Positions 17,001-63,236 of a stretch of 64,000 bases of DNA are shown here, one piece after another. Both the position numbers and the translations under genes were made by a program. The number at the start of each line of letters is the position of its first letter. Position 1 is the first letter of the stretch. The notes under the pieces are model-generated. The model worked only from the letters and a program-made list of their open reading frames with translations. It had not been told where the DNA came from and ran no database searches. The stretch comes from a virus: the IMG/VR virus record IMGVR_UViG_3300011271_000004, positions 1 through 64,000 of that record, one strand, 5' to 3'.

Positions 17001-17093
17001 GAGAAGAACGCGGCGCAAACCGGGGCGGCGCTGGCGCAGGCACTGGACCGGGGCGGCCGTCGTGCCGCTTACGCGGGCATCTACGGAGGCTGA
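14001..17093 (+). CDS. tape measure protein with C-terminal lytic transglycosylase (SLT) domain
   Basis: 1030 aa with Ala/Gly-rich helical and TM-like segments. SLT motif IATESGGNPRAIN..GVPSKGLLQVIRPTF. Confidence 0.9.
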   Translation: MPGLTVADAYLRLRVDGAQLRREVSRDVQAGGAPAGAAFGKAFKVAAVAALAGIGAAIGIGAIAVEQASKFQQAMTQIRTQAGGTAKDVAVLSAQVLKLGGTYAEQGPRQLAAALYHLKSVGLDNVQAMKALRVTSDLAAVGQADLESTANALAGAWRVGIRGATSFSQAAGTVNAIIGAGNMHLQDFVSAIGTGILPAAKTWGLSLGQVGAALALMTDEGQNAAEAATRLRMTFALLGAPSAAAAKQLAIIGITGLQLGNAMRSPGGLIAAITLLKTHLDASGLSASESAALLAHAFGGGRSSATILGLINNLEVLRKKQDQINRTTGRYTSAVIAQRQTAGAQFARLGAIVDTFGIRLGLALLPPVTAFVGFLVNTAVPAAVGFAHTVGVAFHQIIPVDAIKRDWRSLLLFLGLARPPPAKLSTADLLHMPAPAKLSVADLLHPLAPVTVPMTVDLLHRAGGSGRTGGLTNTIANAVQGINWTRITGLLGAPLGDALGKAFGWITQHAATLTSQLVTALAGLDWVNIGKQVGGHTLGFAIGLVSSFGAELFSPSFWQHHWWDVIVAALSVTGIGRIGGALAKVLEHIPVLRLFAPLLRGLATVTGPVNKGIDKIVSAVWRGLWDGFRTVFPRAAAFLEREFHLITDRIVGAAGVVRYDALMLGRGLLQGIEHGTSNLVQLIASLIGKLVNPFRPAGGWLVSHGGDLVAGLLRGIARAAAGVGPWINAHLVQPIIHAVMNYFGIHSPSRVMAGLGSNIMTGLFQGIMSHNPLAVVRKVFGSMPAALGHLVERGLVSVASLPGRALRALTGLGGSLLGKIGGFLGSLFGGGGGVQQWAPMVLQVLKMLGQPAGALGIVLSQIATESGGNPRAINLTDINAQMGVPSKGLLQVIRPTFNAYAGPFRSLGQFNPFASIYAGLNYAIHRYGTTGWMNVLGHGHGYLHGGWVTEPVRGIGLRSGHAYSFAEDGRAEYVSPAGAVGGGGGVDALLAKLDRVIKAVEKNAAQTGAALAQALDRGGRRAAYAGIYGG
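15261..15335 (+). repeat. 42-bp tandem duplication inside the tape measure gene
   Basis: CCGGCCAAGCTGTCC(A/G)(C/T)GGCGGACCTGCTGCAC occurs twice, 42 nt apart. It encodes AKLS(T/V)ADLLH twice. Confidence 0.8.
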
Positions 17094-25727: not shown

Positions 25728-26144
25728 ATGAGGCTGTATGGGTTCCGGTTCTACCCCGCCGCATGGTCGGGGGCATTGGCCACGGCGCTGGCGGCTGTGG
25801 TCGCGTTCGGGTTCTTGCCCAAGTCCACGGCGGACTACGTGTCGGCGGCTGGGGTGGCGCTGCTGGGCCTGGTAACGATGGTCCTGGCCCGCCCGGTGGT
25901 GGTGCCCGCAATCGCGGCGGCCATGTCCACGTTCCTGGTGTCCCTCGGCGGGTTCGGCCTGCACCTCACCGATGCGCAGCTTGCCGGTGTGATGGGCGTG
26001 GCCACCATGATCCTTACCTGGGCGGTGCACAAGAACGTGGTGCCCGCCGCCGGTTCCCCCTCGGTGGCTGACCCCCGGCTGCACCCGCTCGTGCACGCCC
26101 CCGAGCGGATCGGCGCATACCAGGCCCAGGTGCCCCCCGGGTGA
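25728..26144 (+). CDS. holin-like multi-TM protein
   Basis: SD GGAGGTG. About 4 hydrophobic helices in 138 aa, directly upstream of the lysin with a GTGA overlap. Confidence 0.55.
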   Translation: MRLYGFRFYPAAWSGALATALAAVVAFGFLPKSTADYVSAAGVALLGLVTMVLARPVVVPAIAAAMSTFLVSLGGFGLHLTDAQLAGVMGVATMILTWAVHKNVVPAAGSPSVADPRLHPLVHAPERIGAYQAQVPPG

Positions 26145-27172
26145 CGCCCAAGTTCCTGATCGACGCCGCCAGCTTCCAGGGCACGGTGAACTGGTGGACG
26201 GTGGCTATCGGCTGCTCAGGCGGGTGGGAGAAGGTCACCCAGGGCACCACGTACGCCAACCCGTTCTGGGCCGCCGCGCAGCCCGCCATGGCCGCGCAGA
26301 TCGCCCACGGGTTCACCCCCGGGGCGTACCTGTTCATGGAAGCTGGCGACGGCGCGGCGCAGGCCGACTGGTTCGCCGCCCGCGCGGGGCCGCTGCCCGG
26401 CTTCGGGGTGGCCATCGACGCGGAGCCATCGTTCGGGCTGCGCCGCCTGGCGCACGTCTTCCCCGAGGTGCTCACCGCCGGCGACGAGGCGGCGGCGCGC
26501 GCCACCATCGCCCGCGCCACCAGCGTGCCCACCTTGGCGGAGGTGCGGGCGTGCAAGGACCGCCTGGCCCAGCACTACCCGGGCAAGCCTGTCGGCGGGT
26601 ACCTGCCGCACTGGTTCTGGGGTGAGCAGGACACCACGTTCGTGGACTACTTGTGGGCGTCTGACTACGTGCTGGGCCAGGGCCGCCCGCAGGATCTCTA
26701 CCAGCATGTGGTGCCGGCGCAGTGGGCACCGTACGGCGGGCGCGCCCCGGCGCTGCTCCAGTTCACGTCCTCGGCCACCGTGCCGGGTGTCAACGGCCTG
26801 GTGGACTGCTCGGTGTATGAGGGCAGCGACCTGGTCACGCTGATGGTCGGCGCGGCGGCCCCCGGGCTGCCTGGTGAGGAGGAGGACATGGGCGCATCAT
26901 GGCTGCCCAACGCGCGGGTGGCACCGCTGGCGCTGCCGAACGGGGTCAAGCGGCTCCGGTTCGTGGGGCTGGGCGGCACGGAGACGCTGAAGGTGGACTG
27001 GATCATGGGCGTCAGCCCCGACGCGCCGACCCAGACCGTGGATGTGTCGTACGCCATCGGCGCGGCTGGGCTACCTGTGCCGGCTAATTGCACCAGCGCG
27101 CGGGTGGTGCGCGCTGACCTGCCCGCAGGTGCAGCCGACTATCCTTTGGTCGGCATCGCCTACGTGTTCTGA
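26141..27172 (+). CDS. endolysin, GH25 muramidase-like N-terminal domain
   Basis: IDAASFQGTVNW...KVTQGTTYANPFW...AIDAE matches the GH25 pattern (D.S..QG.I.W...K.TEG..Y.D..F ... D.E). The extra C-terminal domain of about 90 aa was not recognised. Confidence 0.7.
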   Translation: MTPKFLIDAASFQGTVNWWTVAIGCSGGWEKVTQGTTYANPFWAAAQPAMAAQIAHGFTPGAYLFMEAGDGAAQADWFAARAGPLPGFGVAIDAEPSFGLRRLAHVFPEVLTAGDEAAARATIARATSVPTLAEVRACKDRLAQHYPGKPVGGYLPHWFWGEQDTTFVDYLWASDYVLGQGRPQDLYQHVVPAQWAPYGGRAPALLQFTSSATVPGVNGLVDCSVYEGSDLVTLMVGAAAPGLPGEEEDMGASWLPNARVAPLALPNGVKRLRFVGLGGTETLKVDWIMGVSPDAPTQTVDVSYAIGAAGLPVPANCTSARVVRADLPAGAADYPLVGIAYVF

Positions 27173-37939: not shown

Positions 37940-38773
37940 CTACCTGGCCCACCGGGGCCAATCCAGCGTGGTTATGGCCTGGCCGGGCTGGTACCCCGGC
38001 CACTCACCAGCCTCAACGCACCGCGCATATTCGCGCCGCGCGCGGGCTATGTCCGCCTGGGCGGCCTCAATGGCCTCCCACGGCAGTTCGTAGATGCCCA
38101 CCAGGTACGGGGGCTCTTTCTCCTGGGCGACGAACAAGAACCGTGGGTCCGCATCGCCCAGGGTGTGGGTGACACCCTGGGCGTACCACACGCCTTGCCA
38201 GTGGTAGCGGTAGTTGGCCGCAGCCTTGGCGAACCCCTCCGGGTCGGCGTGCGCCGCCGACTTGAAATCGGTGATCACCACCCGCCCGGCCAGCTTCACC
38301 GCATCGAACCGGGCGCGCAGCATGATGCCGGTGTCCGGGTCCTCCCAGAAGAAACTGTGCTCGGCCAGCACGTCCTCAGCCGACAGCAGCAACGCGGCGG
38401 TGGGGTGGGTGCGGATAGCTGCGGCCATGGCCACAATCCGCTCCCGCTGCTCAGGCTTGATCGGCACCTTGCCGACGTCGCGCTGCTCGGCGGCCCACTC
38501 CTGGGCGGCCTTGGTCTTGTAATCGGCCCACGGGGACACCACGTAGGGCCAGCCTGCGCCAAGCACCTCACGGTGCGCGGCGGTGCCGAACTCCATTGCG
38601 CTGGTAGGCGGCCGGGGTGTTTTGCGTGACCACTGATACAGCGCCGGGCAGCCCGGTGGCAGCAGCAGCTTGGCCCCCGAGCACGACAGGGAGCCCCCGG
38701 GCCACGGGTCGGCGTGGTAGTCGGCCTCAGCCAGGTCCGGGTACACCCCTGGCTTACTCAGGATCGCTGGCAT
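37940..38773 (-). CDS. PD-(D/E)XK exonuclease (RecE/Cas4/YqaJ-like)
   Basis: Motifs ARFDAV...VITDFKS (D...D.K) and HWQGVWY (Q...Y). 277 aa. Confidence 0.7.
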   Translation of the reverse strand: MPAILSKPGVYPDLAEADYHADPWPGGSLSCSGAKLLLPPGCPALYQWSRKTPRPPTSAMEFGTAAHREVLGAGWPYVVSPWADYKTKAAQEWAAEQRDVGKVPIKPEQRERIVAMAAAIRTHPTAALLLSAEDVLAEHSFFWEDPDTGIMLRARFDAVKLAGRVVITDFKSAAHADPEGFAKAAANYRYHWQGVWYAQGVTHTLGDADPRFLFVAQEKEPPYLVGIYELPWEAIEAAQADIARARREYARCVEAGEWPGYQPGQAITTLDWPRWAR

Positions 38774-43359: not shown

Positions 43360-44220
43360 ATGTGGGCCAATGTTGATGACGCATTCTGGGCGCACCGTAA
43401 GGTGCTGGCCCTGATGGAGCACCCGGACGGGCTGGCCGCCATCGGGCTGTGGACCCTGGCCCTGGGATGGGCGCGGCACCAGGAGGCCAACGGCAGCCAC
43501 GGCACACCAGGGCAGGTGCCAAGCGCCATGGTGTACCGCCTAGCTGGCGAGCAAGGCCCCCACCTGGCTGCGCTGCTGGTGCAGCAGGCGCGGCCACCCG
43601 GTTACGACCATGGCCTATGGGACGAATGCCCAGCCGGTGGCTGGCTGTTCCACGACTTCGCCTTCTGGCAGCAGCTAGAGCAGTGGCAGGCCAAGCGGGA
43701 CCAGGCCAAGCGGGCGGCCCGTAAGCGGTGGGGACAGGATGGGCCGGGGCTGTTCGATGCGGGCGCAGATGCCTCCGCAGATGCGGGCGCAGATGCGGAT
43801 GCATCACCAGACGCACATGCGGGCGCAGATGCGGACGCAATGCCCACTACACCCCACCCCAATACAAGGGAAGCTAACGCTTCCCTAGATGCCCACCTGG
43901 CAACTGCGTCCTTCGACGCCTTCTGGGGTGCATACCCCCGGAAGGTCGGTAAGCGGAAGGCCCAGCAGGAGTGGGAGCTTGCGCTACGGCAGCGGCGGGC
44001 TACCCCCGAGGTCATCGTGGCGGGGGCTATGCGGTACCGGGACGACCCGCACCGGGTGGCGCAGTACACCAAGCACCCGTCCACCTGGTTGCATCAGGAT
44101 TGCTGGGGTGATGACCCCATGCCCTCACGGGGCGGCCGGGGCCGCAGCGGCGATGAGGAGTTCACGGATGGCCTGCGCAGGGCAGCCGAGCTTCAGCAAC
44201 AGGAGAGGGGCACCAGGTGA
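43360..44220 (+). CDS. replication initiator/organizer-like protein (DUF1376/YdaU-like N-terminus, from memory)
   Basis: ATG at 43360 follows GGGAGG. C-terminal block FDAFWGAYPRKVGKRKAQQEW...TWLHQDCW. An internal (G)ADA low-complexity region is encoded by 16-bp repeats. Confidence 0.5.
   Translation: MWANVDDAFWAHRKVLALMEHPDGLAAIGLWTLALGWARHQEANGSHGTPGQVPSAMVYRLAGEQGPHLAALLVQQARPPGYDHGLWDECPAGGWLFHDFAFWQQLEQWQAKRDQAKRAARKRWGQDGPGLFDAGADASADAGADADASPDAHAGADADAMPTTPHPNTREANASLDAHLATASFDAFWGAYPRKVGKRKAQQEWELALRQRRATPEVIVAGAMRYRDDPHRVAQYTKHPSTWLHQDCWGDDPMPSRGGRGRSGDEEFTDGLRRAAELQQQERGTR
43757..43832 (+). repeat. three perfect 16-bp direct repeats (ATGCGGGCGCAGATGC)
   Basis: Copies at 43757-43772, 43781-43796 and 43817-43832, with spacing of 24 and 36 nt. 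Confidence 0.85.
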
Positions 44221-44642
44221 GCGCAGATTTCGAGCTTTCCCCCGAGGACGCGGCAGCACCGATCACCCGGGCGGGGTGCGTGCTGCTGCTGACGCTGGCG
44301 CGGGCTGCTGACCGGCGGGTGGATGCGGGTGACGCGGCGGCGTTTATGTGGCACATGCTGCTGGGCGCTGACGGTCAGGGCGCAGCGGTCAGGGCGGGGG
44401 ATGCGATGGCGGCCATGGTGGCGCACTACCAGCAGCCGGATGCCAGGCCGGTGATGCCAGGTGACATCATCGGCGCGGTGGAGGAGTGGTCGGTGCAGTG
44501 GGTGCAGGGGAACCGGGCGGGGCTGCGGCCACCTGGGTGGCCCGAGGCGGCCGAGGAGTTGATCAGCGGCCCAGAGTTGGCGCGGCGGTCAGGGCTGCCG
44601 CTGGCGCAGCCGTTGCGCGCGCTGCCCGGTGGTGCGTCATGA
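44217..44642 (+). CDS. hypothetical protein
   Basis: GTG at 44217 follows GGAGAGGGGCACCAG. 141 aa. Confidence 0.5.
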   Translation: MSADFELSPEDAAAPITRAGCVLLLTLARAADRRVDAGDAAAFMWHMLLGADGQGAAVRAGDAMAAMVAHYQQPDARPVMPGDIIGAVEEWSVQWVQGNRAGLRPPGWPEAAEELISGPELARRSGLPLAQPLRALPGGAS

Positions 44643-45958
44643 CCGCCACGGCGGAGGGCAACGGGCACGCCCCGTGGGCGGTGGACCGGCCCGCGCCAGC
44701 GCAGGCCATACCGGCGGAGCGTGCGGTGTTGGGGGCCATGCTGTCATCGCCGCTGGCGGTGGAGGCCGCCGGGGCGGCGCTAATCCCGGGGGACTTCCAC
44801 CGGCCCGCGCACCAGGTGATCTACCAGGCGATGATCGTCATGCACGCCATGGGCGTGCCCATCGACGCCATCACCGTGCGGGAGCACATCGACACCGACA
44901 TGGGCGAGATCAAGGCCCTTGGCGGGCACCAGGCCGCTGCGGCGTACCTGGTGGACTTGTGGACCAGCACCGAGGCACGCGGCGCGGAGCAGGTGCCGCA
45001 CCACGCCAGGATCATCCGCGAGCGCGGCGCGCGGCGGCTGGGCGTGGAGGCCCTGGACCGGGCGTACCAGATGCTGGCGGAAGGCGACGGCAACGCCACC
45101 GAACTGCTGGCCCGGTGTTCGGCGGAGTTGGATGTGGCGCTGCGCCGCGCCACCGAAGACGTGGACCCGATGGGCGCGCAGATGACCGGGCGGGCGTTCG
45201 TCACCCGCCACCGGGTGCACCGCCGGCCGCTGATACCCGGCCTGCTGCACGCCTTGGACCGGCTGGTGCTGATCGGCGGCGAAGGCGGCGGCAAGTCCAC
45301 GCTGCGCGACCAGTTCGCCTGCTGCGCGGTGGCCGGGGTGCACCCGTTCCTGGGCACGGCCACACCCCCGCTGCGGGTGCTGATCGTAGACCTGGAAAAC
45401 CCGGCGGACCTGCTGCAAGACCGGCTGGAGCACCTGATGGACCTTGGCGGCCAGCACCCCGGCTGGTCGGATGAGGCGCTGCGGGTGTGGTCGCACCCGG
45501 CGGGGCTGAACTTCCGCGACCCGGCGGACGTGCACCGGCTGGCGGTCAACATCCGCCAGGCGGCCCCGCACCTGGTGATGGCCGGGCCGATCAAGAAAAT
45601 GTACCGGGACACCGGGGAGACCGCCGATCATGGGCTGGTCACTGAGGTGTGGGATCAGTTGCGGCTGCGGCTGGGCTGCGCGCTGGTGCTGGAGCACCAT
45701 GCGCCGATGGGGAACATTCGCCGGCCGTGGCGGCCCGCCGGATCGGGTATCTGGTCAAGCTGGCCTGAGTCGGGCATCGCGCTGACCCCCGGCGGTAAGG
45801 ACGACCCGGCGGGGGCGCTGCGGGTGAAGTCGTTCCGGGGGCACCGCCGACCGGGGATCATGTGGCCTGAGAAGCTGCACCGGTCGGTGACCAGCGCCAC
45901 GTGGCCGTGGGAGGGCCGGTACCCGCAAGGCACCCTCACCGACCCGCAGGGGGCGTGA
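44639..45958 (+). CDS. DnaB N-terminal-domain / RecA-like (AAA_25-type) replicative ATPase
   Basis: In-frame ATG at 44639 forms an ATGA overlap. N-terminus AERAVLGAMLSSP...HQVIYQAM. Walker A GGEGGGKST. Walker B-like VLIVDLE. Confidence 0.7.
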   Translation: MTATAEGNGHAPWAVDRPAPAQAIPAERAVLGAMLSSPLAVEAAGAALIPGDFHRPAHQVIYQAMIVMHAMGVPIDAITVREHIDTDMGEIKALGGHQAAAAYLVDLWTSTEARGAEQVPHHARIIRERGARRLGVEALDRAYQMLAEGDGNATELLARCSAELDVALRRATEDVDPMGAQMTGRAFVTRHRVHRRPLIPGLLHALDRLVLIGGEGGGKSTLRDQFACCAVAGVHPFLGTATPPLRVLIVDLENPADLLQDRLEHLMDLGGQHPGWSDEALRVWSHPAGLNFRDPADVHRLAVNIRQAAPHLVMAGPIKKMYRDTGETADHGLVTEVWDQLRLRLGCALVLEHHAPMGNIRRPWRPAGSGIWSSWPESGIALTPGGKDDPAGALRVKSFRGHRRPGIMWPEKLHRSVTSATWPWEGRYPQGTLTDPQGA

Positions 45959-46569
45959 TGATTGTCGGTGGCCTGGACCAGTCGCTGCGGTCCTTCGGCC
46001 TGGCCAAGGCCCACACCGGCACGCGGCAGATCATCACCCGCTGCCTGCGGACCACGGTCACCGGCCACCCCCGGCTGGAAATGCTGGTACGCCACGCCCT
46101 GGGGTGGTGCGGCGCACCTGACCGGTGCGACCTGGTGGTGATGGAGGGCCTGGCCATGGGCGCGCAGGGCAACAGCCTGCTGGACCTGGCCGGGCTGCAA
46201 ACGATGATCCGCCACGAGCTATGGCGCGCCGGCATCCCCTACGCCATGATCGGCCCCACCTCGCTGAAGCTGTACGCCACCGGCCACGGCCACGCGGACA
46301 AGGCGGCGATGATGGCGGCGGCGTACCGGCTGCTGCCGCAGGTGACGACCCGCACCCACGATGAGGCCGATGCGGTGTGGCTGGCTGAGGCGGGCTGCCG
46401 GCACTACGGGCACCCGCTGTGTGAGCTACCCGAGCGGCAGGCCGGGGTTCTGACCGCGTTGCGCGCCAAGGGCCGCCACAAGGGCAAGCCAATGATCACC
46501 TGGCCCGCGCTGGGCGTGGCCGAACCGGTGCAAGGCGCACTGGACGGCCTGGCGGTGCCCCGTGGGTGA
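45958..46569 (+). CDS. RuvC-like Holliday junction resolvase
   Basis: Acidic catalytic pattern GLDQS (D), VVMEG (E), THDEADAVWLA (D/D). The start overlaps the helicase stop. Confidence 0.65.
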   Translation: MIVGGLDQSLRSFGLAKAHTGTRQIITRCLRTTVTGHPRLEMLVRHALGWCGAPDRCDLVVMEGLAMGAQGNSLLDLAGLQTMIRHELWRAGIPYAMIGPTSLKLYATGHGHADKAAMMAAAYRLLPQVTTRTHDEADAVWLAEAGCRHYGHPLCELPERQAGVLTALRAKGRHKGKPMITWPALGVAEPVQGALDGLAVPRG

Positions 46570-51913: not shown

Positions 51914-53503
51914 GTGACCGTGCCCGCGTTCCGCCTGGCCGAGCAGCGGTACGACGAGGCCATAGAACTGGCCACCATCACCGAGCACCCCGACAACGCC
52001 AACGAGGGCGAGGTTGGCGTCATCGAGGAGTCGCTGGGCGAACTGGGGTTCTACGGGGCCATCCTGGTGCAAGAGGCCACCCGGCACATCCTGGTAGGCA
52101 ACCACCGGTACCGAGAGGCGCTGGCCCTAGGGGCCACCCACCTGCCCGGCTTCTGGTACACCGGCCCCGACGAGCAGGCCCGCAAGATCATGGCCGTGGA
52201 CAACCGGTCCACCCGCCTGGGTAAGGACAACCGGGCCAAGCTGCTGGCCTTGCTGCGGCCCTTGGGCACCTTGGCAGGCACCGGGTACCGCGAGCGGGAC
52301 ATGCTGGCGCTGCTGCGCGGCCAGGCCCCCGGCAGCGACGGCGCGCCCAGCTTGGCCGACCGGTTCATGGTGCCCCCGTTCGACGTGCTGGACGCCCGCT
52401 CCGGGTGGTGGCGGGCACGCAAAGCCCAATGGCTGGCCACCGGCATTCAATCCGAACTGGGCCGGCTGGGGGGGCTCGCGTACAAAGATCTGCGGCAGAG
52501 TCCTGCACCAGGCAAAGCGATGACGCACGCCCGCGCCGACCCTCGCTACTACGACCTGAAGGCCGCCGCCGAGGTGCGCGCCGGGCGCAAGCTGACCACT
52601 GAGGAGTTCGGTGCCGACTGGTACGAGGCCCCCACCGAGGGTCATGCCACCGGCACCAGCATCTTCGACCCGGTGTTGTGCGAGTTGGCGTACCGGTGGT
52701 GGTGCCCGCCTGGTGGCCAGGTGGTAGACCCGTTCGCTGGCGGCAGCGTGCGCGGCCTGGTAGCCGCCATCTTGGGCCGCGACTACCTGGGGGTGGACCT
52801 GTCCGCCGCCCAGGTAGCAGCCAACGAGGCGCAGGCGCAGGCGTTCCTGGTCGCCGGGCTGCTAGCGCAGCGCCCCGACACCACCGCGCTGGGCGTGGCT
52901 GGGCTGCGCGCTGCCATGGCCGCCGTGCCGCCGCCCCGGGTGCCCCGCTGGAAGACCGGCGATAGCGCCGAGTACCAGTGGCGGCGCGGCTGGGCCGACC
53001 TGCTGTTCACCTGCCCGCCGTATTACGACCTGGAGCGGTACTCCGACGACGAGGCAGACCTGTCGGCCATGGCAGAAGCCGAGTTCGACAAGGCGTACAC
53101 CGCCATCCTGGGCAACGCCACCACCGCGCTGCGCCGCCACCGGTTCGCCGTCGTAGTGGTGGGCGACGTGCGCACCTCAGACGGCCGCCTGCGGGACCTG
53201 CGCGGGCTGACGGTGCGGGCGATGGAACGCGCTGGGCTGACCCTGGCCTCCGGGGCGGTGCTGCTCACCCCCGTGGGCTCGGTGCGGATCGCCGCCGGGC
53301 GCGTCATGGACGCTACCCGCACCCTGGGCCGCGTCCACCAGGATGTGCTGGTGTTCGCCAAGGGCGACCGGGGCAAGGCCGCCAAGGCATGCGGCCACGT
53401 AGACACCTATGTGCCTGACGCCGTGGCAGAAGCCATGGCGACCGCTGGAGAGGAGCAAAGCAATGGCGTACCCAACCGCACCGGCCCCTGGGACGGCGGC
53501 TAG
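51914..53503 (+). CDS. ParB-like N-terminal domain fused to a DNA (N6-A/N4-C) methyltransferase
   Basis: ParB-like HPDNANEG...ILVGNHRYREA. SAM motif VVDPFAGGSVRG. Catalytic motif TCPPYYD. Confidence 0.75.
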   Translation: MTVPAFRLAEQRYDEAIELATITEHPDNANEGEVGVIEESLGELGFYGAILVQEATRHILVGNHRYREALALGATHLPGFWYTGPDEQARKIMAVDNRSTRLGKDNRAKLLALLRPLGTLAGTGYRERDMLALLRGQAPGSDGAPSLADRFMVPPFDVLDARSGWWRARKAQWLATGIQSELGRLGGLAYKDLRQSPAPGKAMTHARADPRYYDLKAAAEVRAGRKLTTEEFGADWYEAPTEGHATGTSIFDPVLCELAYRWWCPPGGQVVDPFAGGSVRGLVAAILGRDYLGVDLSAAQVAANEAQAQAFLVAGLLAQRPDTTALGVAGLRAAMAAVPPPRVPRWKTGDSAEYQWRRGWADLLFTCPPYYDLERYSDDEADLSAMAEAEFDKAYTAILGNATTALRRHRFAVVVVGDVRTSDGRLRDLRGLTVRAMERAGLTLASGAVLLTPVGSVRIAAGRVMDATRTLGRVHQDVLVFAKGDRGKAAKACGHVDTYVPDAVAEAMATAGEEQSNGVPNRTGPWDGG

Positions 53504-53885
53504 CTACACCACCCACGGTCAGGTGGCCCTGGTCCTGGACCTGTTGCCGGGGGTCGGCAACCCGCGCCTGATGACCCCATGGGAGGCCATGACCCTGGCC
53601 ACCGCGCTGCGCGCCGCCGCAGCCGCCCACCCCGGGTTCATCCCCTGCACCAGTTGCGGCGCGCCGATGATCTTCGGCTCCACAACGGCGAACAAGCGCA
53701 ACATGCCCTTGGACCCCGGCGACCACCCCGGGGGAAACCTGGTGGCCTGGTGGCACGACGACCGGCTGTGGGTGCGCGGCCACAAACCCGGCGAGGTGCT
53801 GGCCGCCGGGGAGCACCGCGTGGTGTCGCACTACGCCACCTGCACCAAACCCGATGCTCACCGCCGCCGCCCAGCGGCCCGGTAA
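53463..53885 (+). CDS. zinc-ribbon-like hypothetical protein
   Basis: ATG at 53463 follows GGAGAGGAGCAAAGCA. CTSCGAP...H..C pattern. It overlaps the methyltransferase 3' end. Confidence 0.5.
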   Translation: MAYPTAPAPGTAASYTTHGQVALVLDLLPGVGNPRLMTPWEAMTLATALRAAAAAHPGFIPCTSCGAPMIFGSTTANKRNMPLDPGDHPGGNLVAWWHDDRLWVRGHKPGEVLAAGEHRVVSHYATCTKPDAHRRRPAAR

Positions 53886-53954
53886 ACACCCGCCCAACAC
53901 CCCGCCTGGCGTGCTGTCCCGGCGGCACACCCCTGCGCTAATCTGGTGCCCTCA

Positions 53955-53993
53955 TGCGGGGGGTTGATGCCCGGGGCGGGCCGGCCCCCCGCA
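53955..53993. terminator. hairpin in the convergent gap
   Basis: TGCGGGGGG-21 nt-CCCCCCGCA. Confidence 0.4.
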
Positions 53994-54109
53994 CCCCTCC
54001 CCGGCAAGGTGGTGTCCGCCGTGTGCGCTCCTGGCCCCCATGACCCGTCAGACCAAGCTCTGCTAGCCCACGCCCGCCGCGCCAAGGCCCTGGGCATGTG
54101 CCCCCAGCT

Positions 54110-54334
54110 TCACAAGCTGGCCGCCGATGGCACCTGCCCCGAAGGCTGCGCGGTGCCCGACGACGACAACGGCCACGCGGCCACCACCGCCTCCAACACC
54201 GGGTCACCCGACAGCCACCCATCCAGCAGCGCGTTTATCGCCTCGGCCCTGTTAGTGCCTTGAAGCCGCGCCTTGGCGGCAGCGGCATCCCACCGCACCT
54301 GCGGCACGCGGACGTGTCGGACGGGTGTCGCCAT
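54110..54334 (-). CDS. ribbon-helix-helix regulator candidate, divergent from the transfer genes
   Basis: MATPVRHVRVPQVRWDAAAAKARLQGTNRAEAINALLDGWL fits an RHH layout. It competes with the plus-strand ORF 53946-54263, which shares third codon positions, so codon bias cannot decide between them. Confidence 0.45.
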   Translation of the reverse strand: MATPVRHVRVPQVRWDAAAAKARLQGTNRAEAINALLDGWLSGDPVLEAVVAAWPLSSSGTAQPSGQVPSAASL

Positions 54335-54707
54335 GCCCCCAAGGATGACACGCCCCAGGGCTATTGTGGGTGGACCTGTACCCACAACCTTGGAGGCCGC
54401 CGTGGTGCGCAAGCTTGCAGCCGCGTGGGCGTGGCTGGCCACCTGGCACCACCTGCGCCAGGCCGCCACCGTCCTGCTGGGCTGCCTGGCGCTTGGCGCA
54501 ACCGTGGCCGCATTCGGCCAGTCGTACTGGGCGCTGGTGGAGTGGGCGCGTAACCACCACATCCCCTGGCCCGCCACCTGGCCCCTGCTGGTGGACTCGT
54601 TTATGGCCATGGGCGAGGTGCGGCTATTCATCGCCGCCCTGGACGGCAAGCCCCAAGGCTCCCGGTGGGCGCGGTGTGGCGGGTACTGGCGTGGGCGTGG
54701 GCGCTGA
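54333..54707 (+). CDS. DUF2637-like membrane protein, N-terminal part (frame A)
   Basis: FGQSYWALVEWARNHHIPWPATWPLLVDSFMAMGEV resembles the DUF2637 core. The start is uncertain (ATG 54333 or GTG 54366). Confidence 0.5.
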   Translation: MPPRMTRPRAIVGGPVPTTLEAAVVRKLAAAWAWLATWHHLRQAATVLLGCLALGATVAAFGQSYWALVEWARNHHIPWPATWPLLVDSFMAMGEVRLFIAALDGKPQGSRWARCGGYWRGRGR

Positions 54708-55171
54708 CCGCTGTGGGCCTGGCCGCCAGCCTCGCCGGCAACATCGGCCACGCCGGGTGGCGCATGCCACCGGGCACCCTGGCCACCTTCGCCGTGGCCC
54801 CCGTAGCCGCTGCGGCGGCCCTGGGCACAGCGCTGGGCCTGGTGAAGGTGGCAGCCCCCGACACGGCCAAACCGGTAAACCCGGCGGCTACCGCCCAACC
54901 CCACCAGGAGGCGCACACCAGTGGTCCGGTGTCCCCGCCTACCGGGGGGGCGCAGAAGGCCGCACAGCGCCGCGCGCCGGCAACTGCCGCCCAGCGGGGC
55001 GGCGACGACCCGGCGGCCGTGGCGCAGGCCCGCAAGGCAATCATCAACGCAACATCAAGCGGCGAGGTGCTTACTGACCGTAAGCTCGCCCGAGCAACCG
55101 GTGTCACCAGGTACCGCGCGGCCGTGCTGCTGGCCGAGCGCGCCAACGGGCACCGGCCAGGAGAGGAGTAA
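54665..55171 (+). CDS. DUF2637-like membrane protein, C-terminal part (frame -1) with C-terminal HTH-like tail
   Basis: Two further TM helices (VLAWAWALTAVGLAASLAGNIGHA, LATFAVAPVAAAAALGTALGLV) would complete the domain. Confidence 0.5.
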   Translation: MGAVWRVLAWAWALTAVGLAASLAGNIGHAGWRMPPGTLATFAVAPVAAAAALGTALGLVKVAAPDTAKPVNPAATAQPHQEAHTSGPVSPPTGGAQKAAQRRAPATAAQRGGDDPAAVAQARKAIINATSSGEVLTDRKLARATGVTRYRAAVLLAERANGHRPGEE

Positions 55172-55173
55172 CC

Positions 55174-55563
55174 ATGGCCGCACCGGCCCCCGACCCGCAA
55201 GGCCCCGCCTACTCGATTGCCGCCCTGGCCCGCATCCCCGTCCGCGACGGGATGAAGGCCAGCGAGATCGCCTACCTGTGCAACTCCCAGGCCCACACCG
55301 CAGAGACCCTGGCCGGGGTGATCGACCAGCAGGCCCATGCCCTCCAAGGGATTATGGCCCGCACCCAAGGCAACATGTGGGACGCCTTCCGGGCGCGGCA
55401 GGCCGCCCGCCGCGCCACCCGCCCCATGCGGCAGGCCGCCGACCGGATCCGCGCCGGGGCTGCGTCGTCGCGGGCGTGCTGGCGGGTCACCTCCCAGGTG
55501 TTCGCCTCGGTGATGAACCCGACGCCTAAGCGCCAGCGCAAGGGACCGGACTGGACCAAGTAG
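55174..55563 (+). CDS. hypothetical protein
   Basis: ATG at 55174 follows GGAGAGGAGTAACC. 129 aa. Confidence 0.55.
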   Translation: MAAPAPDPQGPAYSIAALARIPVRDGMKASEIAYLCNSQAHTAETLAGVIDQQAHALQGIMARTQGNMWDAFRARQAARRATRPMRQAADRIRAGAASSRACWRVTSQVFASVMNPTPKRQRKGPDWTK

Positions 55564-55591
55564 CCACACCCCCGCTCGGAGGAAACCAGGG

Positions 55592-57703
55592 ATGGCAGCG
55601 AAACGCCCCCGCCCGGCCAGCATGGCCGAGCAGACCATGGAGCACGTGGTGGCCCATGAGGCCCGCCGGCTGGTCGTCATGGGCTGGCCGTGGCCGCTGT
55701 GGCTGTTGCTGTGGGCCGCCGGGTGGCGGCTGCACCAGGCGTGGCACACCTGGGGGACCGCCTGGATGGTTGTGCTGGCCGGCCTGGCGCTGGCCGGCCT
55801 GGCGCTGCACCTGACCCACCACCGCAAGAAGATCACCGGCCGGCTGCTGGCCCCGGTCACCACCCTGGCCGCCGCCGACTGGCTGGCGCTGGCCGAGGTG
55901 TACGGGGCGGCCACCCGCACCGAGCTATTCCGGGTGTGGCTCATCGGCGGCGGCACGGTGGCGCTGGGCTGGTCCATGTGGTTGCACATCCACGATGGCG
56001 GCGACGAAGCCGGGCACGCCCTGGGCCTGGATGAGGCCAGCACGCATACCAGCGTGCCGGGGCTGCGCGCCTGGGTGACTGAGCGGCTGCCCAACAAGGT
56101 AGCCGGGGTGATCCGCCACGCCCCCGGCATCACCACCGCCGAGGTGGTCAAGGCCACCGGGTCGCTGGAGTCGGCGCGGGGCCTGCCGCCGGGCACCTTG
56201 CAGGTGACCCAGCACCCGGACAACGCGCAGCTATCCAAGTTCGTCATGACCAATCCCCGGCTGCTGGACAAGCCCGCACTGTGGCCCGGTGCGTCGCGCC
56301 CCGGCGGCAGCTTCGCGGCCCCGATCCGGTACGGCCTGTTCACCGATGGCACCACCTGCGAGGTGCCGGCGAACAACTACCACGTGCAGATCATGGGCAA
56401 AACCGGGGCGGCGAAAACCACCGGGCCGGGGTACAACGAACTGGCGGAGACGATCACCCGCACCGACGCCGCCGTGCTGGCATGCGACCCGGCGAAGCGG
56501 CAGCAGTTCCTTGGCCCCTTGGCCCCCGCCTTGCACGAGTTCGCCACCACCCCCGGCGACACACGCGAGTTGTTCCACGCGGTGCTGTCGGACATGGTGC
56601 CGCAGCGCACCGACTACCTGGCCACCCAGGGGCTGACCCAGTGGCAGAAAGGCTGCGGGCTGACCCACTTGACGCTGTGGTGCGAGGAAGCCTCGTGGGT
56701 GTTCAACAAGTGCCTGACCGACCGGGACATCGAAAAGTGGGTGGTACCCGGGGTGGTGGCCGCCCGCTCCGCCGCCATCCGGTGCGCGTTCTCCATCCAG
56801 CGCGCCGACTTCACCATGATGCCCACCGTCATCCGCGCGCAGATGTGCCGCATCACCTGCGGGTGCGCTGGCAAAGACGACGCCGCCTTCGGCCTGACGG
56901 ATTACCAGGATGACCACGGCTGCGACCCCGCCCGGTGGGGCAGCGAGAAGCCGGGCATGTTCTACATCGACGTGGACGGGGTGCCCGACACCTACAAGGT
57001 GATGGCCGCACGCTCCTACTGGTGGGGGCCAGACTCAACCATGATCGCCCAGCACGCCCGCCAGTGGGCCATCGACGCCGGCCAGCGCCAGCCACTCGAC
57101 CGGCTGGCCGCCGCAACCCTAGGCGGCATGCACCACACCATGGCCCAAGCGGCCGAAACCAGCGGCCAGCCAGCCGCACCGGCCAAGGCTAGGCCGTCCA
57201 CCACCCTCACTGGCGGGCAGGCGCAGCAGCCACCCGCAGCCGCAGCAGCGGCCACCCAACAGGAGGGCCAAGCCATGGCCGACTACGAACCAGAAGACCC
57301 CGACGAGCCCACCGGGGCCGCCCACGACGATGGCCGGCTGTGGGCCGCCGCCGCCGGGGCCAGCGCTGGCGATTACGCCCCCGGCGACGTGGCCGCCGAC
57401 CCGGCCGTGGCCGACTTCGCCTTCGGCGACCCAGGCGCTGCCCCGGACAACGTGACCCGCCTGCCCCAAACCCTCGACCAGGCCATCGCCGCGCTGCGCC
57501 GCCAAGTCCGCACCTGGTGGACCCAAGGCGCAACCGAGATCACCATGGACATGGTGCTGGGCCTCACCGACGACCCCGACCACGAAAACTACATCGACCG
57601 CTCCCGCCCCTGGCTGTACCCGGCGATGGCCGCCTTGGTGGACGACCCGGAAATGCACCTGGAGCAGCACGACGGGCCGCGCAGGTGGACCCGCGCCGCA
57701 TGA
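55592..57703 (+). CDS. FtsK/SpoIIIE-family DNA translocase (Streptomyces TraB-like)
   Basis: N-terminal TM helices. Walker A-like IMGKTGAAKT. Walker B LTLWCEEAS. Acidic linker followed by a C-terminal region of about 90 aa. Confidence 0.75.
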   Translation: MAAKRPRPASMAEQTMEHVVAHEARRLVVMGWPWPLWLLLWAAGWRLHQAWHTWGTAWMVVLAGLALAGLALHLTHHRKKITGRLLAPVTTLAAADWLALAEVYGAATRTELFRVWLIGGGTVALGWSMWLHIHDGGDEAGHALGLDEASTHTSVPGLRAWVTERLPNKVAGVIRHAPGITTAEVVKATGSLESARGLPPGTLQVTQHPDNAQLSKFVMTNPRLLDKPALWPGASRPGGSFAAPIRYGLFTDGTTCEVPANNYHVQIMGKTGAAKTTGPGYNELAETITRTDAAVLACDPAKRQQFLGPLAPALHEFATTPGDTRELFHAVLSDMVPQRTDYLATQGLTQWQKGCGLTHLTLWCEEASWVFNKCLTDRDIEKWVVPGVVAARSAAIRCAFSIQRADFTMMPTVIRAQMCRITCGCAGKDDAAFGLTDYQDDHGCDPARWGSEKPGMFYIDVDGVPDTYKVMAARSYWWGPDSTMIAQHARQWAIDAGQRQPLDRLAAATLGGMHHTMAQAAETSGQPAAPAKARPSTTLTGGQAQQPPAAAAAATQQEGQAMADYEPEDPDEPTGAAHDDGRLWAAAAGASAGDYAPGDVAADPAVADFAFGDPGAAPDNVTRLPQTLDQAIAALRRQVRTWWTQGATEITMDMVLGLTDDPDHENYIDRSRPWLYPAMAALVDDPEMHLEQHDGPRRWTRAA

Positions 57704-57906
57704 CCGAGCACCGGCCGGCGCTCATCGTGGGCAACCCGGCCCCATCGGAACGGCCGCCGCCCACATGTAGCCGCTGCGGCGACCGGCTGGTCTGCATCCG
57801 ACGCGGGGTATGGCTGTACTGGTATTCCGCCCGGGGCACCCTGATGGCGCTTGAATGCCACGGGGCCGCCGAACCCGCCCGCGCAGGCGCACGCGGGTGC
57901 ACCTGA
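57700..57906 (+). CDS. small zinc-ribbon-like protein
   Basis: ATGA overlap with the translocase stop. CSRCGDRLVC motif. Confidence 0.45.
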   Translation: MTEHRPALIVGNPAPSERPPPTCSRCGDRLVCIRRGVWLYWYSARGTLMALECHGAAEPARAGARGCT

Positions 57907-58065
57907 CAAGATCACCTAGCGGGTGCCCGCTCGCGCGCATCTGTCAGGCTGTGCGCGGGCGGGGGCTGGGGGAGGGGTTCTCTCCCAGGCCACGCGGTTG
58001 TCAGATGGCCTGACAAGATCGTCTGACAGTCCCCTGACGTAGCCTTCTGACAAGGCGCTGACAAC
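57902..58065. repeat. array of 8 (C/T)CTGACA(A/G) repeats (6 direct, 2 inverted)
   Basis: TGAC(A/G) cores at 57905, 58011, 58024, 58035 (TGACG), 58047 and 58059 (direct), and at 57942 and 57999 (inverted). The last five are spaced 13/11/12/12 nt. CCTGACAAGATC occurs twice exactly. Confidence 0.85.
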
Positions 58066-58080
58066 CGGGAGGAGGCCAAG

Positions 58081-58449
58081 GTGGCTAAGCCTTTGAAGGA
58101 GCGGAAGCCGGCCCACGTGTGGGCCTGGGTGTGGGGTGCGTGGGGGGTGGCTGCGCTGGCGCTGCCCGCCTGGGTGCCCATCCTGGGGGTGTTGGCCATC
58201 CTGGGGTTCTACGCCCTGGTGTGCCGGGTGCTGCCCACCTACGACTGCCCGAGGTGTGCCGGTAAGGACCGTTCCGCCAGGCTGGTGGTGGCTGCCTTGG
58301 CCGCCCTGGTCGGCGGCCACCGGGCCGGGTGCCGCTCCAAGCGGTGCCACGGCGGCGAGCGCATCCGCCTGGGGGTGCGGCTGCTACAGCCCGCACGGGC
58401 GGAGTGGCTGGCACGCAACCCCGGCCGGCCCGAGCGGATTAGCGCATGA
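58081..58449 (+). CDS. membrane protein with Cys-rich cytoplasmic part
   Basis: GTG follows GGGAGGAGG. TM helices, then CPRCAGK...C..KRCHGG. Confidence 0.55.
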   Translation: MAKPLKERKPAHVWAWVWGAWGVAALALPAWVPILGVLAILGFYALVCRVLPTYDCPRCAGKDRSARLVVAALAALVGGHRAGCRSKRCHGGERIRLGVRLLQPARAEWLARNPGRPERISA

Positions 58450-58715
58450 GCGGCTACCACCCGCACCCGGTCACAACCGGGGCACCGGGGTGGGTGGTGC
58501 TGGCCGGCTGGGCGGTCATCCTGCTGGCCGGTGGAATCCTGGCCGGCTGCGCGCTGACGGTGGCTGGCCGGTGGGCGGCCACCCGGCTGCGGCTGATCGC
58601 CCGGCCGATGCACGACGACCACGGCCGTCAGCCACCCGTGGCTGGCTGGCCGGACTTCATGGCCGGGCATGCTGAGCTTCAGCCACCCGGAGAGGACAAG
58701 CCGTGGACCTGTTGA
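58446..58715 (+). CDS. membrane protein
   Basis: ATGA overlap with the previous gene. TM helix WVVLAGWAVILLAGGILAGCALTV. Confidence 0.5.
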   Translation: MSGYHPHPVTTGAPGWVVLAGWAVILLAGGILAGCALTVAGRWAATRLRLIARPMHDDHGRQPPVAGWPDFMAGHAELQPPGEDKPWTC

Positions 58716-58986: not shown

Positions 58987-59667
58987 ATGATGGGCGAAAC
59001 GCACATGCTGGGCGGCGTGGCCGCCTGGGCCGGCATCTGCGCCCTGGCGCAGCCAACACCAGGGGTGGTGGTGGCCGGTGCGGGGCTGGCCGTAGCTGGC
59101 GGCCTGGCCCCCGACATCGACCACCGCCGCGCCGACGCCGCGCAGATCGCACGCGGCGCAGGGTGGGCCGCCGTGGCCGCCGGGGGTCTGCTGGCCCTCG
59201 CCGCCACCTCGGTGTCACCGTGGCACCGGTACTGGCCGGCCATCGTGGCCGCCGGGCTGCTGGTGGCGTCGCTGCCGTGGGTGACCCGGCCCCGCTGCGG
59301 CGGCCACTTCCGTGGCCCCGTCCACTCCATGTGGGGCCTGGCCGCCGCCATCGCCCTGGCCCTCGGCCCCGCCGCGTTCGGGCTGTGGCCCGGGTGGGCT
59401 GGCGTAGCGGTCATAGCCGGGTGGTGCAGCCACCTGGTGCTGGACGCCATGACCAAGGAAGGCATCCCGCTGGCGTGGAACCTGCTGACCGGCGACCCTG
59501 GCCCCCGGTTCGCCTTCCTGCCCCGCGACGCCTCTATGACCACCGGGGGCAAGCGGCGCGGCAGGAAGTGGCGGCGGCGCAGCGGCCCCGAATACTGGCT
59601 GGTGCAACCCGCACTGATCTGCATTGCCGTGGTGGCAGCGTTCGCCACCCTGGGCAGCTACCGGTGA
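58987..59667 (+). CDS. membrane-bound metal-dependent hydrolase (YdjM/DUF457-like)
   Basis: ATG follows GGAGAGGAGCAGCCACG. THMLGG...PDIDH...HFRGPVHS...HLVLDAMTKEGIPL is His-rich motif spacing like DUF457. Confidence 0.55.
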   Translation: MMGETHMLGGVAAWAGICALAQPTPGVVVAGAGLAVAGGLAPDIDHRRADAAQIARGAGWAAVAAGGLLALAATSVSPWHRYWPAIVAAGLLVASLPWVTRPRCGGHFRGPVHSMWGLAAAIALALGPAAFGLWPGWAGVAVIAGWCSHLVLDAMTKEGIPLAWNLLTGDPGPRFAFLPRDASMTTGGKRRGRKWRRRSGPEYWLVQPALICIAVVAAFATLGSYR

Positions 59668-62050: not shown

Positions 62051-62250
62051 CGCACGGCCCCAAAGCACGCCTTGCCTGGTACTGGCGCAGGCTCCGCCGC
62101 CAGCCCGCAACCGTGACCCGCCACCACGGCAGCGCATGGTTCACTGCCGTACTAGACCCCCGCCCACCCTGGCGCAGGCCCCGCCCACCTGACTGGACCG
62201 GCTGGCAAGAGCTAGGCGCAACCGAGGACGACCACCGGGGATGGCTATGA
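62047..62250 (+). CDS. small basic protein
   Basis: ATGA overlap with the previous gene. 67 aa. Confidence 0.4.
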   Translation: MTHGPKARLAWYWRRLRRQPATVTRHHGSAWFTAVLDPRPPWRRPRPPDWTGWQELGATEDDHRGWL

Positions 62251-63236
62251 CCCTGCCCGCACCACCACCCGGCCTCCCCCCAGAACAAGCCACCATCTGG
62301 GCCACCACCACCACCCAACTAACCAACCTCGGCATCACCCAAGTAGACCCACGCCATCTACGCGCCTACACCCGCACCGCCCACACCCTCGACCAAGCCA
62401 CCTACCTACTCGACCAAGCCGGACCCCTCATCAACCACGACGGCCGCGTAACCCCCAACCCAGCCGCCACCACCCACCGCACCGCCGCACGCGACCTAGC
62501 CCGCCTCGCAGTAACCCTCGGCCTCACCAGGCCCGCCGCCGCTCCTGCCAGGCATGATGCCGGGGTACCCATGGAAACGCCGCCGCCCCGGGCGCATGGT
62601 GCGCACGACCACTGGGGCGCGCGGTACTGCGAGGATCACAAGCGGTGGGAGTGCACCGGCCAGCGGTCCAAGGGCCGGGGGCAGTGCCACAAGCCAGCGT
62701 CGCGCGGGCTCAACACGTGCAACATGCACCAGGGCCGGGGCGGCAAGATCAAGCACCTGGCGGCGGTGGCGGAGCAGGAGGCGGTGCGCCTGGGCGGCCG
62801 GCTGCCCGGTGGGCGTGAGGCCCCGGAGATCCACCCGGCTGATGCGCTGTTGTACCAGGTCAGGTACTGGGCGGGGCTGTGCGGGTGGCTGGATGACATG
62901 GTGGCCGCGTTGGAGCAAGGCACCATGGTGTGGGGGCTGGTGCGGGAAACCGACGCCAGCGGCGGTGAGTACCCGGGGCGCACGACGATTCATGGGGCGG
63001 GCCTTGCGGTGTGGGTGCAGTGGCATGAGCGGGCGCACAAGCAACTGGCGTGGGTGTGTGAGATTGCGTTGCGCGCGGAGGTGGATCAGGCGGCGCTGGC
63101 GTTGCAGCAGGCCCAGGGGATGCAGGCGTTCCGCGCCTTCCAAGCTGGGCTCCAGCGGCTGGGCCTGACGGCGGATCAGTGGGCCACCGCCAGGGCGGTC
63201 ATGCCCCAGGTGCTGCGGGCGCTGGTGGCGGCGTGA
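62241..63236 (+). CDS. terS: terminase small subunit (P27-family N-terminal domain) with a long C-terminal extension
   Basis: LPPEQATIWATTTTQLTNLGITQVDPRHLRAYTRTAHTLDQATYLLDQAG...TPNPAATTHRTAARDLARLAVTLGLT fits the P27 small-terminase pattern. About 220 extra residues include a Cys/His cluster. Confidence 0.65.
   Translation: MAMTLPAPPPGLPPEQATIWATTTTQLTNLGITQVDPRHLRAYTRTAHTLDQATYLLDQAGPLINHDGRVTPNPAATTHRTAARDLARLAVTLGLTRPAAAPARHDAGVPMETPPPRAHGAHDHWGARYCEDHKRWECTGQRSKGRGQCHKPASRGLNTCNMHQGRGGKIKHLAAVAEQEAVRLGGRLPGGREAPEIHPADALLYQVRYWAGLCGWLDDMVAALEQGTMVWGLVRETDASGGEYPGRTTIHGAGLAVWVQWHERAHKQLAWVCEIALRAEVDQAALALQQAQGMQAFRAFQAGLQRLGLTADQWATARAVMPQVLRALVAA

Follow-up and report, generated by a model that had tools for sequence, protein, structure and literature searches.

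Transfer of double-stranded DNA (dsDNA) by TraB translocases is taken to be a trait of actinomycete plasmids and of AICEs, the integrative and conjugative elements of these bacteria. What, then, is a TraB-like gene set doing in the genome of a tailed phage? The question is raised by the virus record IMGVR_UViG_3300011271_000004, of which we analysed positions 1 to 64,000 (hereafter the window), and by a module in its right-hand part, in which a divergent regulator gene is followed by genes for a membrane protein, a TraA-like protein and a TraB-family translocase and then by an array of short repeats resembling a clt, the locus for transfer that acts in cis. An earlier interpretation made from the letters of the DNA (the sequence-only reading) had placed the module at 54110-57906; it extends beyond that end and takes in the array, which occupies 57903-58063. 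We are highly confident that the module belongs to the TraB family, that its cognate repeat locus accompanies it and that the phage carrying it is genuine. The system itself, actinomycete TraB conjugation, is of a known kind; what is new is its carrier, a tailed phage, and it has a regulator and a repeat motif of its own and is conserved in the lineage.

The translocase gene (55592-57703, plus strand) encodes a protein of 703 amino acids (aa) that matches the NCBIfam family NF041214 (plasmid_TraB) at 6.6e-80 and 269 bits, residues 33-696 aligning with positions 12-629 of the 639 in the profile. It also matches phrog_24831 (1.3e-50), a family of unknown function, so related proteins are already present, unnamed, in phage and prophage collections. 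The sequence-only reading had called the protein an FtsK/SpoIIIE-family translocase of the TraB type. Its TraB assignment stands, together with the Walker A and B motifs and the N-terminal transmembrane (TM) region, but the likeness to FtsK is one of fold and profile only: the Pfam scan of TraB returned neither FtsK_SpoIIIE (PF01580) nor FtsK_gamma (PF09397) at E<=0.1. A phmmer search of 1.84 billion representative proteins gave 464 relatives at E<=1e-3; these matches are unannotated and, from their number, too small for the FtsK family to be among them, we infer a compact family that excludes FtsK. Searching plasmids by tblastn returned 50 records, all of them actinomycete plasmids (25-36% identity), with many of the matching genes annotated as traB or FtsK/SpoIIIE.

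The Walker A (MGKTGAAKT), Walker B (LWCEE) and SIQRAD motifs are invariant among homologues. In an alignment with 13 of these, the invariant positions include G269, G272 and K275 of Walker A (MG-x-TG-x-x-KT), E365 and E366 of Walker B, Q403 and R404 of the FtsK-type S-x-QR motif and, near the C-terminus, R672-x-W674-x-Y676; the same motifs are found in the TraB proteins of pJV1 and pSN22. The start at 55592 is favoured because the N-terminus that it gives, MAAKRP, aligns with homologue P0002. An AlphaFold2 (AF2) model built from the homologue alignment has a mean predicted local distance difference test score (pLDDT) of 73, and of ~90 in the motor. Its N-terminal helices (residues 11-150, with a hydrophobic TM segment at 56-74) are followed by an alpha/beta domain (159-250) and a RecA-type ATPase (255-500); a disordered linker (515-624) then leads to a C-terminal winged helix (628-701) with the topology alpha1-beta1-alpha2-alpha3-beta2-beta3. 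Foldseek against the PDB ranked the FtsK motor first (2ius and 6t8g; E 1e-13, TM-score 0.64), followed by TcpA, a coupling protein of conjugation, EssC/EccC and HerA, and the alignment profile retrieved FtsK as its sole match among PDB sequences (E 1e-3). The published architecture of TraB, an FtsK-like motor with a C-terminal winged helix, agrees with this model (PMC4447253).

By neighbour joining, the phage TraBs group in a single clade, which is nested among the TraBs of plasmids and AICEs and adjoins those of Streptosporangiales elements. Profile comparison and phylogeny, both suggested in the sequence-only reading, thus do not place the protein with chromosomal FtsK. On these grounds it is best regarded as belonging to the TraB family, distantly but clearly, and not as an orthologue of the pSN22-type protein. 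Two unnamed viral proteins in BFVD, I4AZH4 (853 aa) and I4AZH2, match the whole TraB model (E 4e-22, 805 columns, 13% identity); their accession block may be that of an actinophage. Another homologue, P0012, of 1051 aa and found on 13 contigs of up to 141 kb, has a match to LAGLIDADG_3 (PF14528) and is probably an intein-containing TraB.

Conservation was assessed by clustering the open reading frames (ORFs) of 27 TraB loci (designated below by L numbers), the window and pJV1 included. Directly downstream of TraB in the window lie eight copies of YCTGAC(A/G)R (57903-58063), the candidate clt. These 161 bp hold seven of the 17 CTGACA hexamers in the window and one CTGACG, where ~0.025 copies of CTGACA would be expected (Poisson P ~1e-15). 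One copy is direct, two are inverted and five are again direct (58010, 58023, 58034, 58047 and 58058), the last five being spaced by 13, 11, 13 and 11 bp. The array was spotted by eye and then tested, generic repeat finders having missed it because the unit is too short. Both the CTGACA array and its direct/inverted layout are kept after TraB in L003, L013 and L008, and a related array, CTGACGTGATCATCC (CTGACG), follows TraB in L005.

The plasmid pJV1 served as a positive control: nine copies of CCGCACA(C/G) begin 5 bp past its traB stop codon, and genetic evidence is reported that clt cannot function without these direct repeats (Franco et al. 2003, cited in PMC4447253). TraB has been described as assembling at clt through recognition of 8-bp TraB recognition sequence (TRS) repeats (PMC4170104). 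An assumption-free scan for the strongest 6-mer cluster, run over the whole of the 12-22-kb TraB loci, found it to begin between -2 and +70 bp from the TraB stop in 14 of the 26 loci other than the window. The motifs are locus-specific, and near-identical winged-helix sequences go with the same or similar motifs (GTGGCA in L015/L020, GCGACA in L019/L021, CTGTTC in L025/L026, GTTGCA and GTGCAA in L016/L023, CTGACA in the window, L003, L013 and L008). A cognate locus recognized by TraB would be expected to show such a pattern, and at the level of sequence the array is a candidate clt. The sequence-only reading had suggested that a repeat array could be the recognition locus of the translocase, an idea that gains support from the location of 57903-58063 in the position of the pJV1 clt. 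Another candidate, a 12-nt tandem array (GATGCGGGCGCA, ~7 copies, 43756-43843), was rejected as a recognition locus since it is part of a 286-aa ORF (43360-44220), located just before the gene for a DnaB-like helicase, and encodes a (DAGA)n low-complexity linker.

The gene immediately upstream of traB (55174-55563, plus strand), described earlier only as encoding a 129-aa protein, can be assigned to a family. Its product matches NCBIfam NF041213 (plasmid_TraA) at 1.1e-6 and, among precomputed annotations, PF28214 (TraA-like); our own Pfam scan of the module proteins gave no match for it. According to the ORF clustering, a TraA-like gene is present in 25 of the 27 TraB loci and adjoins TraB in nearly all of them, pJV1 included, and in the annotation of the pSN22 record traA likewise adjoins traB. 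The homologues in these 25 loci terminate in a conserved aromatic-x-aromatic tail (e.g. PDWTK, FDFKS, FNWDD). The AF2 model of the window protein (pLDDT 70) has helices at 29-63 and 68-109, a predicted long helical hairpin, for which Foldseek found nothing significant (best E 0.48). The top non-significant matches (E 0.5-2) are the type VII secretion substrates EsxB and PE/PPE. Such substrates are handled by the FtsK-like ATPases EccC/EssC, and we mention as a speculative lead that TraA might, by analogy, dock on TraB in the same manner.

The divergent gene at the other end of the module (54110-54334, minus strand), which was also called by the Joint Genome Institute (JGI), encodes a 74-aa regulator of the Arc/MetJ ribbon-helix-helix (RHH) type with a match to the Arc-like repressor family phrog_6506 (1e-5). 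L003 (89% identity), L011 and L008 (~42%) have orthologues that are divergent from the operon in the same place, in keeping with the small minus-strand RHH gene of the sequence-only reading, and the protein is a candidate 'Kor' repressor of the transfer operon. The divergent promoter region contains a perfect 8-bp inverted repeat, TTGTGGGT-N8-ACCCACAA (54364-54387), that is unique in the window. Its right-hand part, ACCTGTACCCACAACC, is kept in L003 and its left arm varies there at several positions, the surrounding region being 79% identical; the repeat is a candidate operator with a putative role in binding the regulator.

Opposite the regulator, the sequence-only reading had seen a single gene for a DUF2637-like multi-TM protein. 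Its relationship and its multi-TM character (four predicted helices) can be retained, but the gene is split between two frames. The N-terminal half of this DUF2637-related, Spd-like protein, with two predicted TM helices, is encoded at 54333-54707 (plus strand; the start codon, ATG at 54333 or TTG at 54390, is uncertain), and the C-terminal half, with another two, at 54665-55171 in the -1 frame of the same strand. The halves were delimited by tblastn with the intact 257-aa orthologue of L003, residues 28-142 of which align in frame 1 and residues 97-257 in frame 3, the latter with 48% identity to 54665-55171. The orthologue matches PF10935 (DUF2637) at 2.7e-11; the window protein, when repaired, stays below the Pfam DUF2637 threshold (E<=0.01), and its separate halves have no Pfam match either. 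A stretch of the C-terminal half resembles a helix-turn-helix by eye, with no confirmation from any tool. The frame change falls at ~54650-54690 and is the same in five assemblies from different samples and pipelines; since these are 100% identical over 4 kb, we consider it a real genotype rather than an assembly error. No slippery heptamer (X XXY YYZ) of a programmed -1 frameshift signal was seen on inspection of the overlap, and for the broken gene a fixed pseudogene, a split protein and a site of unconventional recoding are all conceivable. Among GenBank phages the protein has just weak partial matches, in phiSASD1 and Dubu. In the plasmid pTFSG2 a DUF2637 gene is located downstream of TraB.

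Comparison with known systems brings out what is shared and what is not. The nearest model is that of pJV1 and pSN22, to whose TraBs the pSVH1 protein and pIJ101 KilA are functional equivalents. Common to these plasmids and the window are the order divergent repressor, traA, traB, with short direct repeats after traB (pJV1) and membrane/spread genes beyond, and, in TraB, the N-terminal membrane region, the motifs MGxTGxxK(T/S), W-x-EE and S-x-QR, the C-terminal GR-x-R-x-W winged helix and an NF041214 match that spans the full length. They differ in that the TraB identity is only 27-29%, with a score under the equivalog cut-off; the regulator is of the RHH type in the window and of the GntR family in the plasmids; the Spd-like gene is disrupted in the window; the repeat is YCTGACAR in place of the CCGCACA(C/G) of pJV1; and the replicon is a ~73.5-kb tailed phage, not a plasmid or AICE, with no Rep or Int among the ORFs scanned. 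Of the architecture proposed earlier (regulator, membrane or Spd-like protein and TraB), the gene order, TraA, TraB and the repeats conform to the plasmid model, whereas the regulator is RHH rather than GntR and the membrane partner is disrupted.

Among the matches listed, the closest non-phage TraBs (32-43% identity) are those of Streptosporangiales elements, namely the Thermobispora bispora plasmid, Nonomuraea gerenzanensis p1 and chromosomal loci of Actinomadura and Streptosporangium. They share the GAAKT variant of Walker A, and the Nonomuraea plasmid has a TraA-like gene beside TraB and a repeat cluster after it (GTGTCA, six copies, at +70). Only TraB (by clustering also TraA) is common to these elements and the window; GntR regulators, ParA/ParB and SsgA genes are theirs, and no phage structural genes occur in the flanks examined. 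FtsK and SpoIIIE share with the window TraB the motor fold, which is its best structural match, but not its membrane domain or C-terminal DNA-recognition domain, and Pfam gives no FtsK match. Some actinophages had been said to carry FtsK-like genes, and genes so annotated do occur in Streptomyces phages Mandalore, Naboo and Geonosis; their products belong to the same superfamily, SpdB2/DUF2637 homologues are found in phiC31, VWB, phiSASD1 and Dubu, and BFVD contains phage proteins whose fold is similar to that of the window TraB. What sets the window apart from these phages is the TraA partner and the clt-like array, neither of which we found described in the literature beside a phage FtsK-like gene. 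Full-text literature searches likewise yielded no description of a TraA-TraB-clt cassette or of a TraB-like gene in a phage, and neither TraB nor TraA had a homologue in 50,697 GenBank phage records by tblastn, even at E<=5, or the module a megablast match.

That the carrier is a phage is clear from its gene content. The window (71% G+C) is the genome of a siphovirus-type tailed phage (Caudoviricetes) in which structural genes and the module lie on one molecule (PHROG E values of 1e-21 to 1e-97), as the sequence-only reading had supposed. PHROG matches identify the large terminase TerL (1927-3552), portal (3960-6215), head protease (6219-8081), HK97-type major capsid protein (MCP; 8995-9915), tape-measure protein (14193-17093) and endolysin (26141-27172). 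The MCP is at most 47% identical to those of cultured phages, Gordonia phages being the closest. A Terminase_4-type small terminase (62247-63236; weak match in L204, homologue in L013 at 1.7e-6) is encoded ~4.5 kb downstream of TraB; between it and the large terminase, across the genome junction, lie genes spanning ~12 kb.

The window sequence was recovered on a 73,554-bp JGI soil-metagenome contig, Ga0137392_10000006, with one nucleotide difference across the 18.4-kb overlap, at position 50121 (G in the window, C in the contig); the window therefore comes from a sibling assembly, and a contig of 73,572 bp is also on record. Over its 4 kb the module does not differ (100% identity) between the JGI, Logan and NCBI assemblies of different samples, and the window TraA protein is found on 13 contigs from these sources. 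The assemblies break at differing points, which is consistent with a genome of ~73.5 kb that is circular or circularly permuted. About 5.8 kb of that genome were not directly read, an exact 42-mer from the first letters of the window having no match among metagenome contigs, and the TraB-to-TerL stretch of a syntenic relative was used in their place.

Relatives in IMG/VR were found by an alignment-based scan, a scan for exact peptides of a single protein having given none. In UViG_3300010366_000024 (L013) the identities to the window are 53% for TraB, 96% for the MCP and 79% for TerL; in UViG_3300031912_000007 they are 48%, 88% and 63%. TraB and TerL lie 17.7 kb apart in the former and, if the genome of the window phage is 73.5 kb and circular, 17.8 kb apart there. 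In all, the module is physically linked to phage structural genes in three contig lineages. A phage-like subgroup of the TraB loci (the window, L003, L005, L006, L008 and L011-L014) has in common genes for DnaB, RuvC, DUF1643, a ParB-methylase and YdjM. Among the matches listed for GTDB species genomes, most are Streptosporangiales loci (32-43% identity) that have only TraB in common with the window, and no close relative in the form of a plasmid or prophage is found (best match 43% identical, TraB only). Judged from its closest TraB relatives, the phage probably has a Streptosporangiales-type mycelial actinomycete as host.

If the parts work as their counterparts on plasmids do, the following picture emerges. 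The RHH protein would repress the divergent operon, which encodes the partly disrupted Spd-like membrane protein, TraA and TraB. TraB would insert into the membrane via its N-terminal helices and form a hexameric FtsK-like pore, its C-terminal winged helix recognizing the downstream YCTGACAR repeats as clt. ATP hydrolysis would then pump phage dsDNA across a septal cross-wall or hyphal contact, and from one infection neighbouring compartments or hyphae could be colonized without virions. We consider it an even question whether a phage-borne TraB/clt system, controlled by the RHH protein, does carry phage dsDNA from one hyphal compartment or cell to another. The more far-reaching proposition, that this soil siphovirus lineage is 'conjugative' and uses its own TraA-TraB and clt-like array to spread unpackaged dsDNA through mycelia with no extracellular stage, is put forward tentatively, and we lean somewhat against it.

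Several observations weigh against the transfer reading. At 269 bits TraB is far under the NCBIfam equivalog cut-off of 800, and its Walker A motif, GAAKT, has Ala in place of the last Gly of the canonical motif, a variant common to the Thermobispora and Nonomuraea plasmid TraBs. The divergent gene encodes an RHH protein and not the GntR-family TraR/KorA repressor of plasmids; GntR genes fill that place in pJV1, pSN22, pTFSG2 and the Thermobispora plasmid. In L006/L014, L011 and L024 TraB is not followed by a CTGAC array, and that of the window abuts the start of the next operon and could be a regulatory site instead. The Spd-like/DUF2637 gene is frame-shifted in the window phage. In L013 (IMGVR_UViG_3300010366_000024) the TraA gene (L013 5094-5483) is interrupted in frame by a TAA stop and has no DUF2637 gene upstream of it, because of which the accessory parts may be decaying or dispensable; TraB and the CTGACA array of this relative are intact. 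The functional steps, namely DNA binding, pore formation, transfer and a benefit to the phage, are inferred from sequence.

Of the other explanations, a role in segregation or maintenance survives best, although we rate it as unlikely. Here the translocase would act like FtsK, SpoIIIE or SffA at sporulation septa, so that phage genomes, replicating or latent, are cleared from them or delivered to compartments and spores, in a carrier state like that of a phage-plasmid. The FtsK-motor fold would suit this role, and TraB is thought to be active in intramycelial spreading across septa besides transfer (PMC4447253). The differing assembly breakpoints, which fit a circular or permuted genome, point the same way, as does the lack of an integrase: consistent with a remark in the sequence-only reading, none was found in window ORFs of >250 aa (with the exception of a 2186-aa ORF, which was not scanned) or in the larger ORFs of the equivalent 17.7-kb TraB-to-TerL region of the close relative, where the sole Pfam match is the Terminase_4 small subunit. 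Against it, the ORFs scanned yielded no gene for Rep or ParA and none for partition by a classical ParB, the domain that resembles ParB being fused to a DNA methylase (51914-53503; PHROG and Pfam scans), nor is there a close plasmid or prophage relative among the GTDB matches listed. The suggestion of a phage-plasmid hybrid found no backing for the same reasons, and on gene content such a lifestyle is neither supported nor excluded. Segregation also overlaps mechanistically with our preferred explanation, transfer of phage dsDNA by TraB.

Somewhat less probable still is that the cassette is a passenger, a captured fragment of a plasmid or AICE that is functionless for the phage or decaying, with TraB inactive or relevant only through 'Kil' toxicity. 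Such decay is what one would read from the DUF2637 gene, frame-shifted in all assemblies of this phage, from the stop in L013 TraA and from the varying presence and position of the membrane partner among relatives, and the closest cellular relatives are indeed integrated or plasmid elements of Streptosporangiales. Against this, every member of the phage clade examined has an intact TraB whose catalytic residues are invariant. TraB keeps its place, with the replication genes on one side and the small terminase on the other, while its identity falls to 48-53% and that of the MCP stays at 88-96%; the array is co-conserved with it, and the phage TraBs form a clade of their own rather than a scatter of recent acquisitions.

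We consider it improbable that the array serves instead in transcriptional control of the downstream membrane-protein operon, TraB being non-specific or acting on host DNA (takeover, exclusion or mobilization of host markers). Its last repeat ends at the ribosome-binding site, GGAGG, of the gene at 58093-58449, as do the equivalents in L003, L013 and L008, and CTGACA is similar to the -35 hexamer TTGACA. Yet a sigma-70 consensus scan of 53800-58500 found no promoter, the rule of repeats after traB is common to plasmids in which the repeats are the genetically defined clt, and the motifs co-vary with the C-terminal domain of TraB and not with the downstream genes. Finally, although the data are metagenomic and members of the TraB family otherwise occur on plasmids and in chromosomal elements, an assembly artefact (a chimera of phage with plasmid or AICE, or a prophage lying beside an AICE in a host chromosome) is very unlikely, because independent relatives show the same linkage to phage genes, the phage TraBs form a single clade and the GTDB loci share TraB only, and also in view of the identity of the module across assemblies and on 13 TraA-bearing contigs, of phage genes on both sides (ParB-methylase and DUF1643 upstream, the Terminase_4 small subunit downstream) and of the fact that no host housekeeping genes were seen.

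Should transfer by TraB be borne out, a complete and conserved TraA-TraB-clt cassette in tailed phages would blur the line between phages and conjugative elements in a new way, and phages of multicellular bacteria would gain a virion-independent route through the mycelium. It has long been speculated that Spd-like genes on actinophages aid the spread of phage DNA (PMC4447253), and the cassette would make that idea directly testable. Apart from phages, the rule that the strongest short-repeat cluster lies right after traB and co-varies with the winged helix predicts clt/TRS motifs for uncharacterized elements.

Downstream of TraB, the sequence-only reading had closed the module with a zinc-ribbon gene. 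The 68-aa CxxC ORF in question (57700-57906, plus strand) is doubtful: its G+C content is 0.81 at third and 0.68 at second codon positions (GC3 and GC2), it was not called by JGI, it has no homologue in related loci and its sole family match is to DUF6300 at E 0.059. It is probably not a conserved gene. The product of the first gene past the array (58093-58449, plus strand) is a small membrane protein that combines a single TM helix with a four-cysteine zinc ribbon (CPRC...CRSKRCHG). It has no Pfam, PHROG or NCBIfam match, and homologues occur downstream of TraB in eight loci, immediately in some and a few genes off in others. Further on, a YdjM-family inner-membrane protein (58987-59667, plus strand; PF04307 at 1.1e-15) is encoded; 10 loci of the phage-like group, the window included, have such a gene downstream of TraB, and the plasmid loci have none. 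Its membership of the module is uncertain.

Elsewhere in the window, PHROG matches identify an exonuclease in a minus-strand early block (37940-38746), the DnaB-like helicase (44639-45958) and RuvC (45955-46569). The 2186-aa ORF (17118-23678), directly 3' of the tape-measure gene and overlain by many spurious antisense ORFs, presumably encodes a giant tail or host-recognition protein. The phage-like contig of L005 (61.6 kb, also present in a 123-kb version) carries GIY-YIG, NUDIX and PLD-like genes near the TraB module and, at L005 13509-14849, a full trigger-factor homologue with both Trigger_N and Trigger_C domains.

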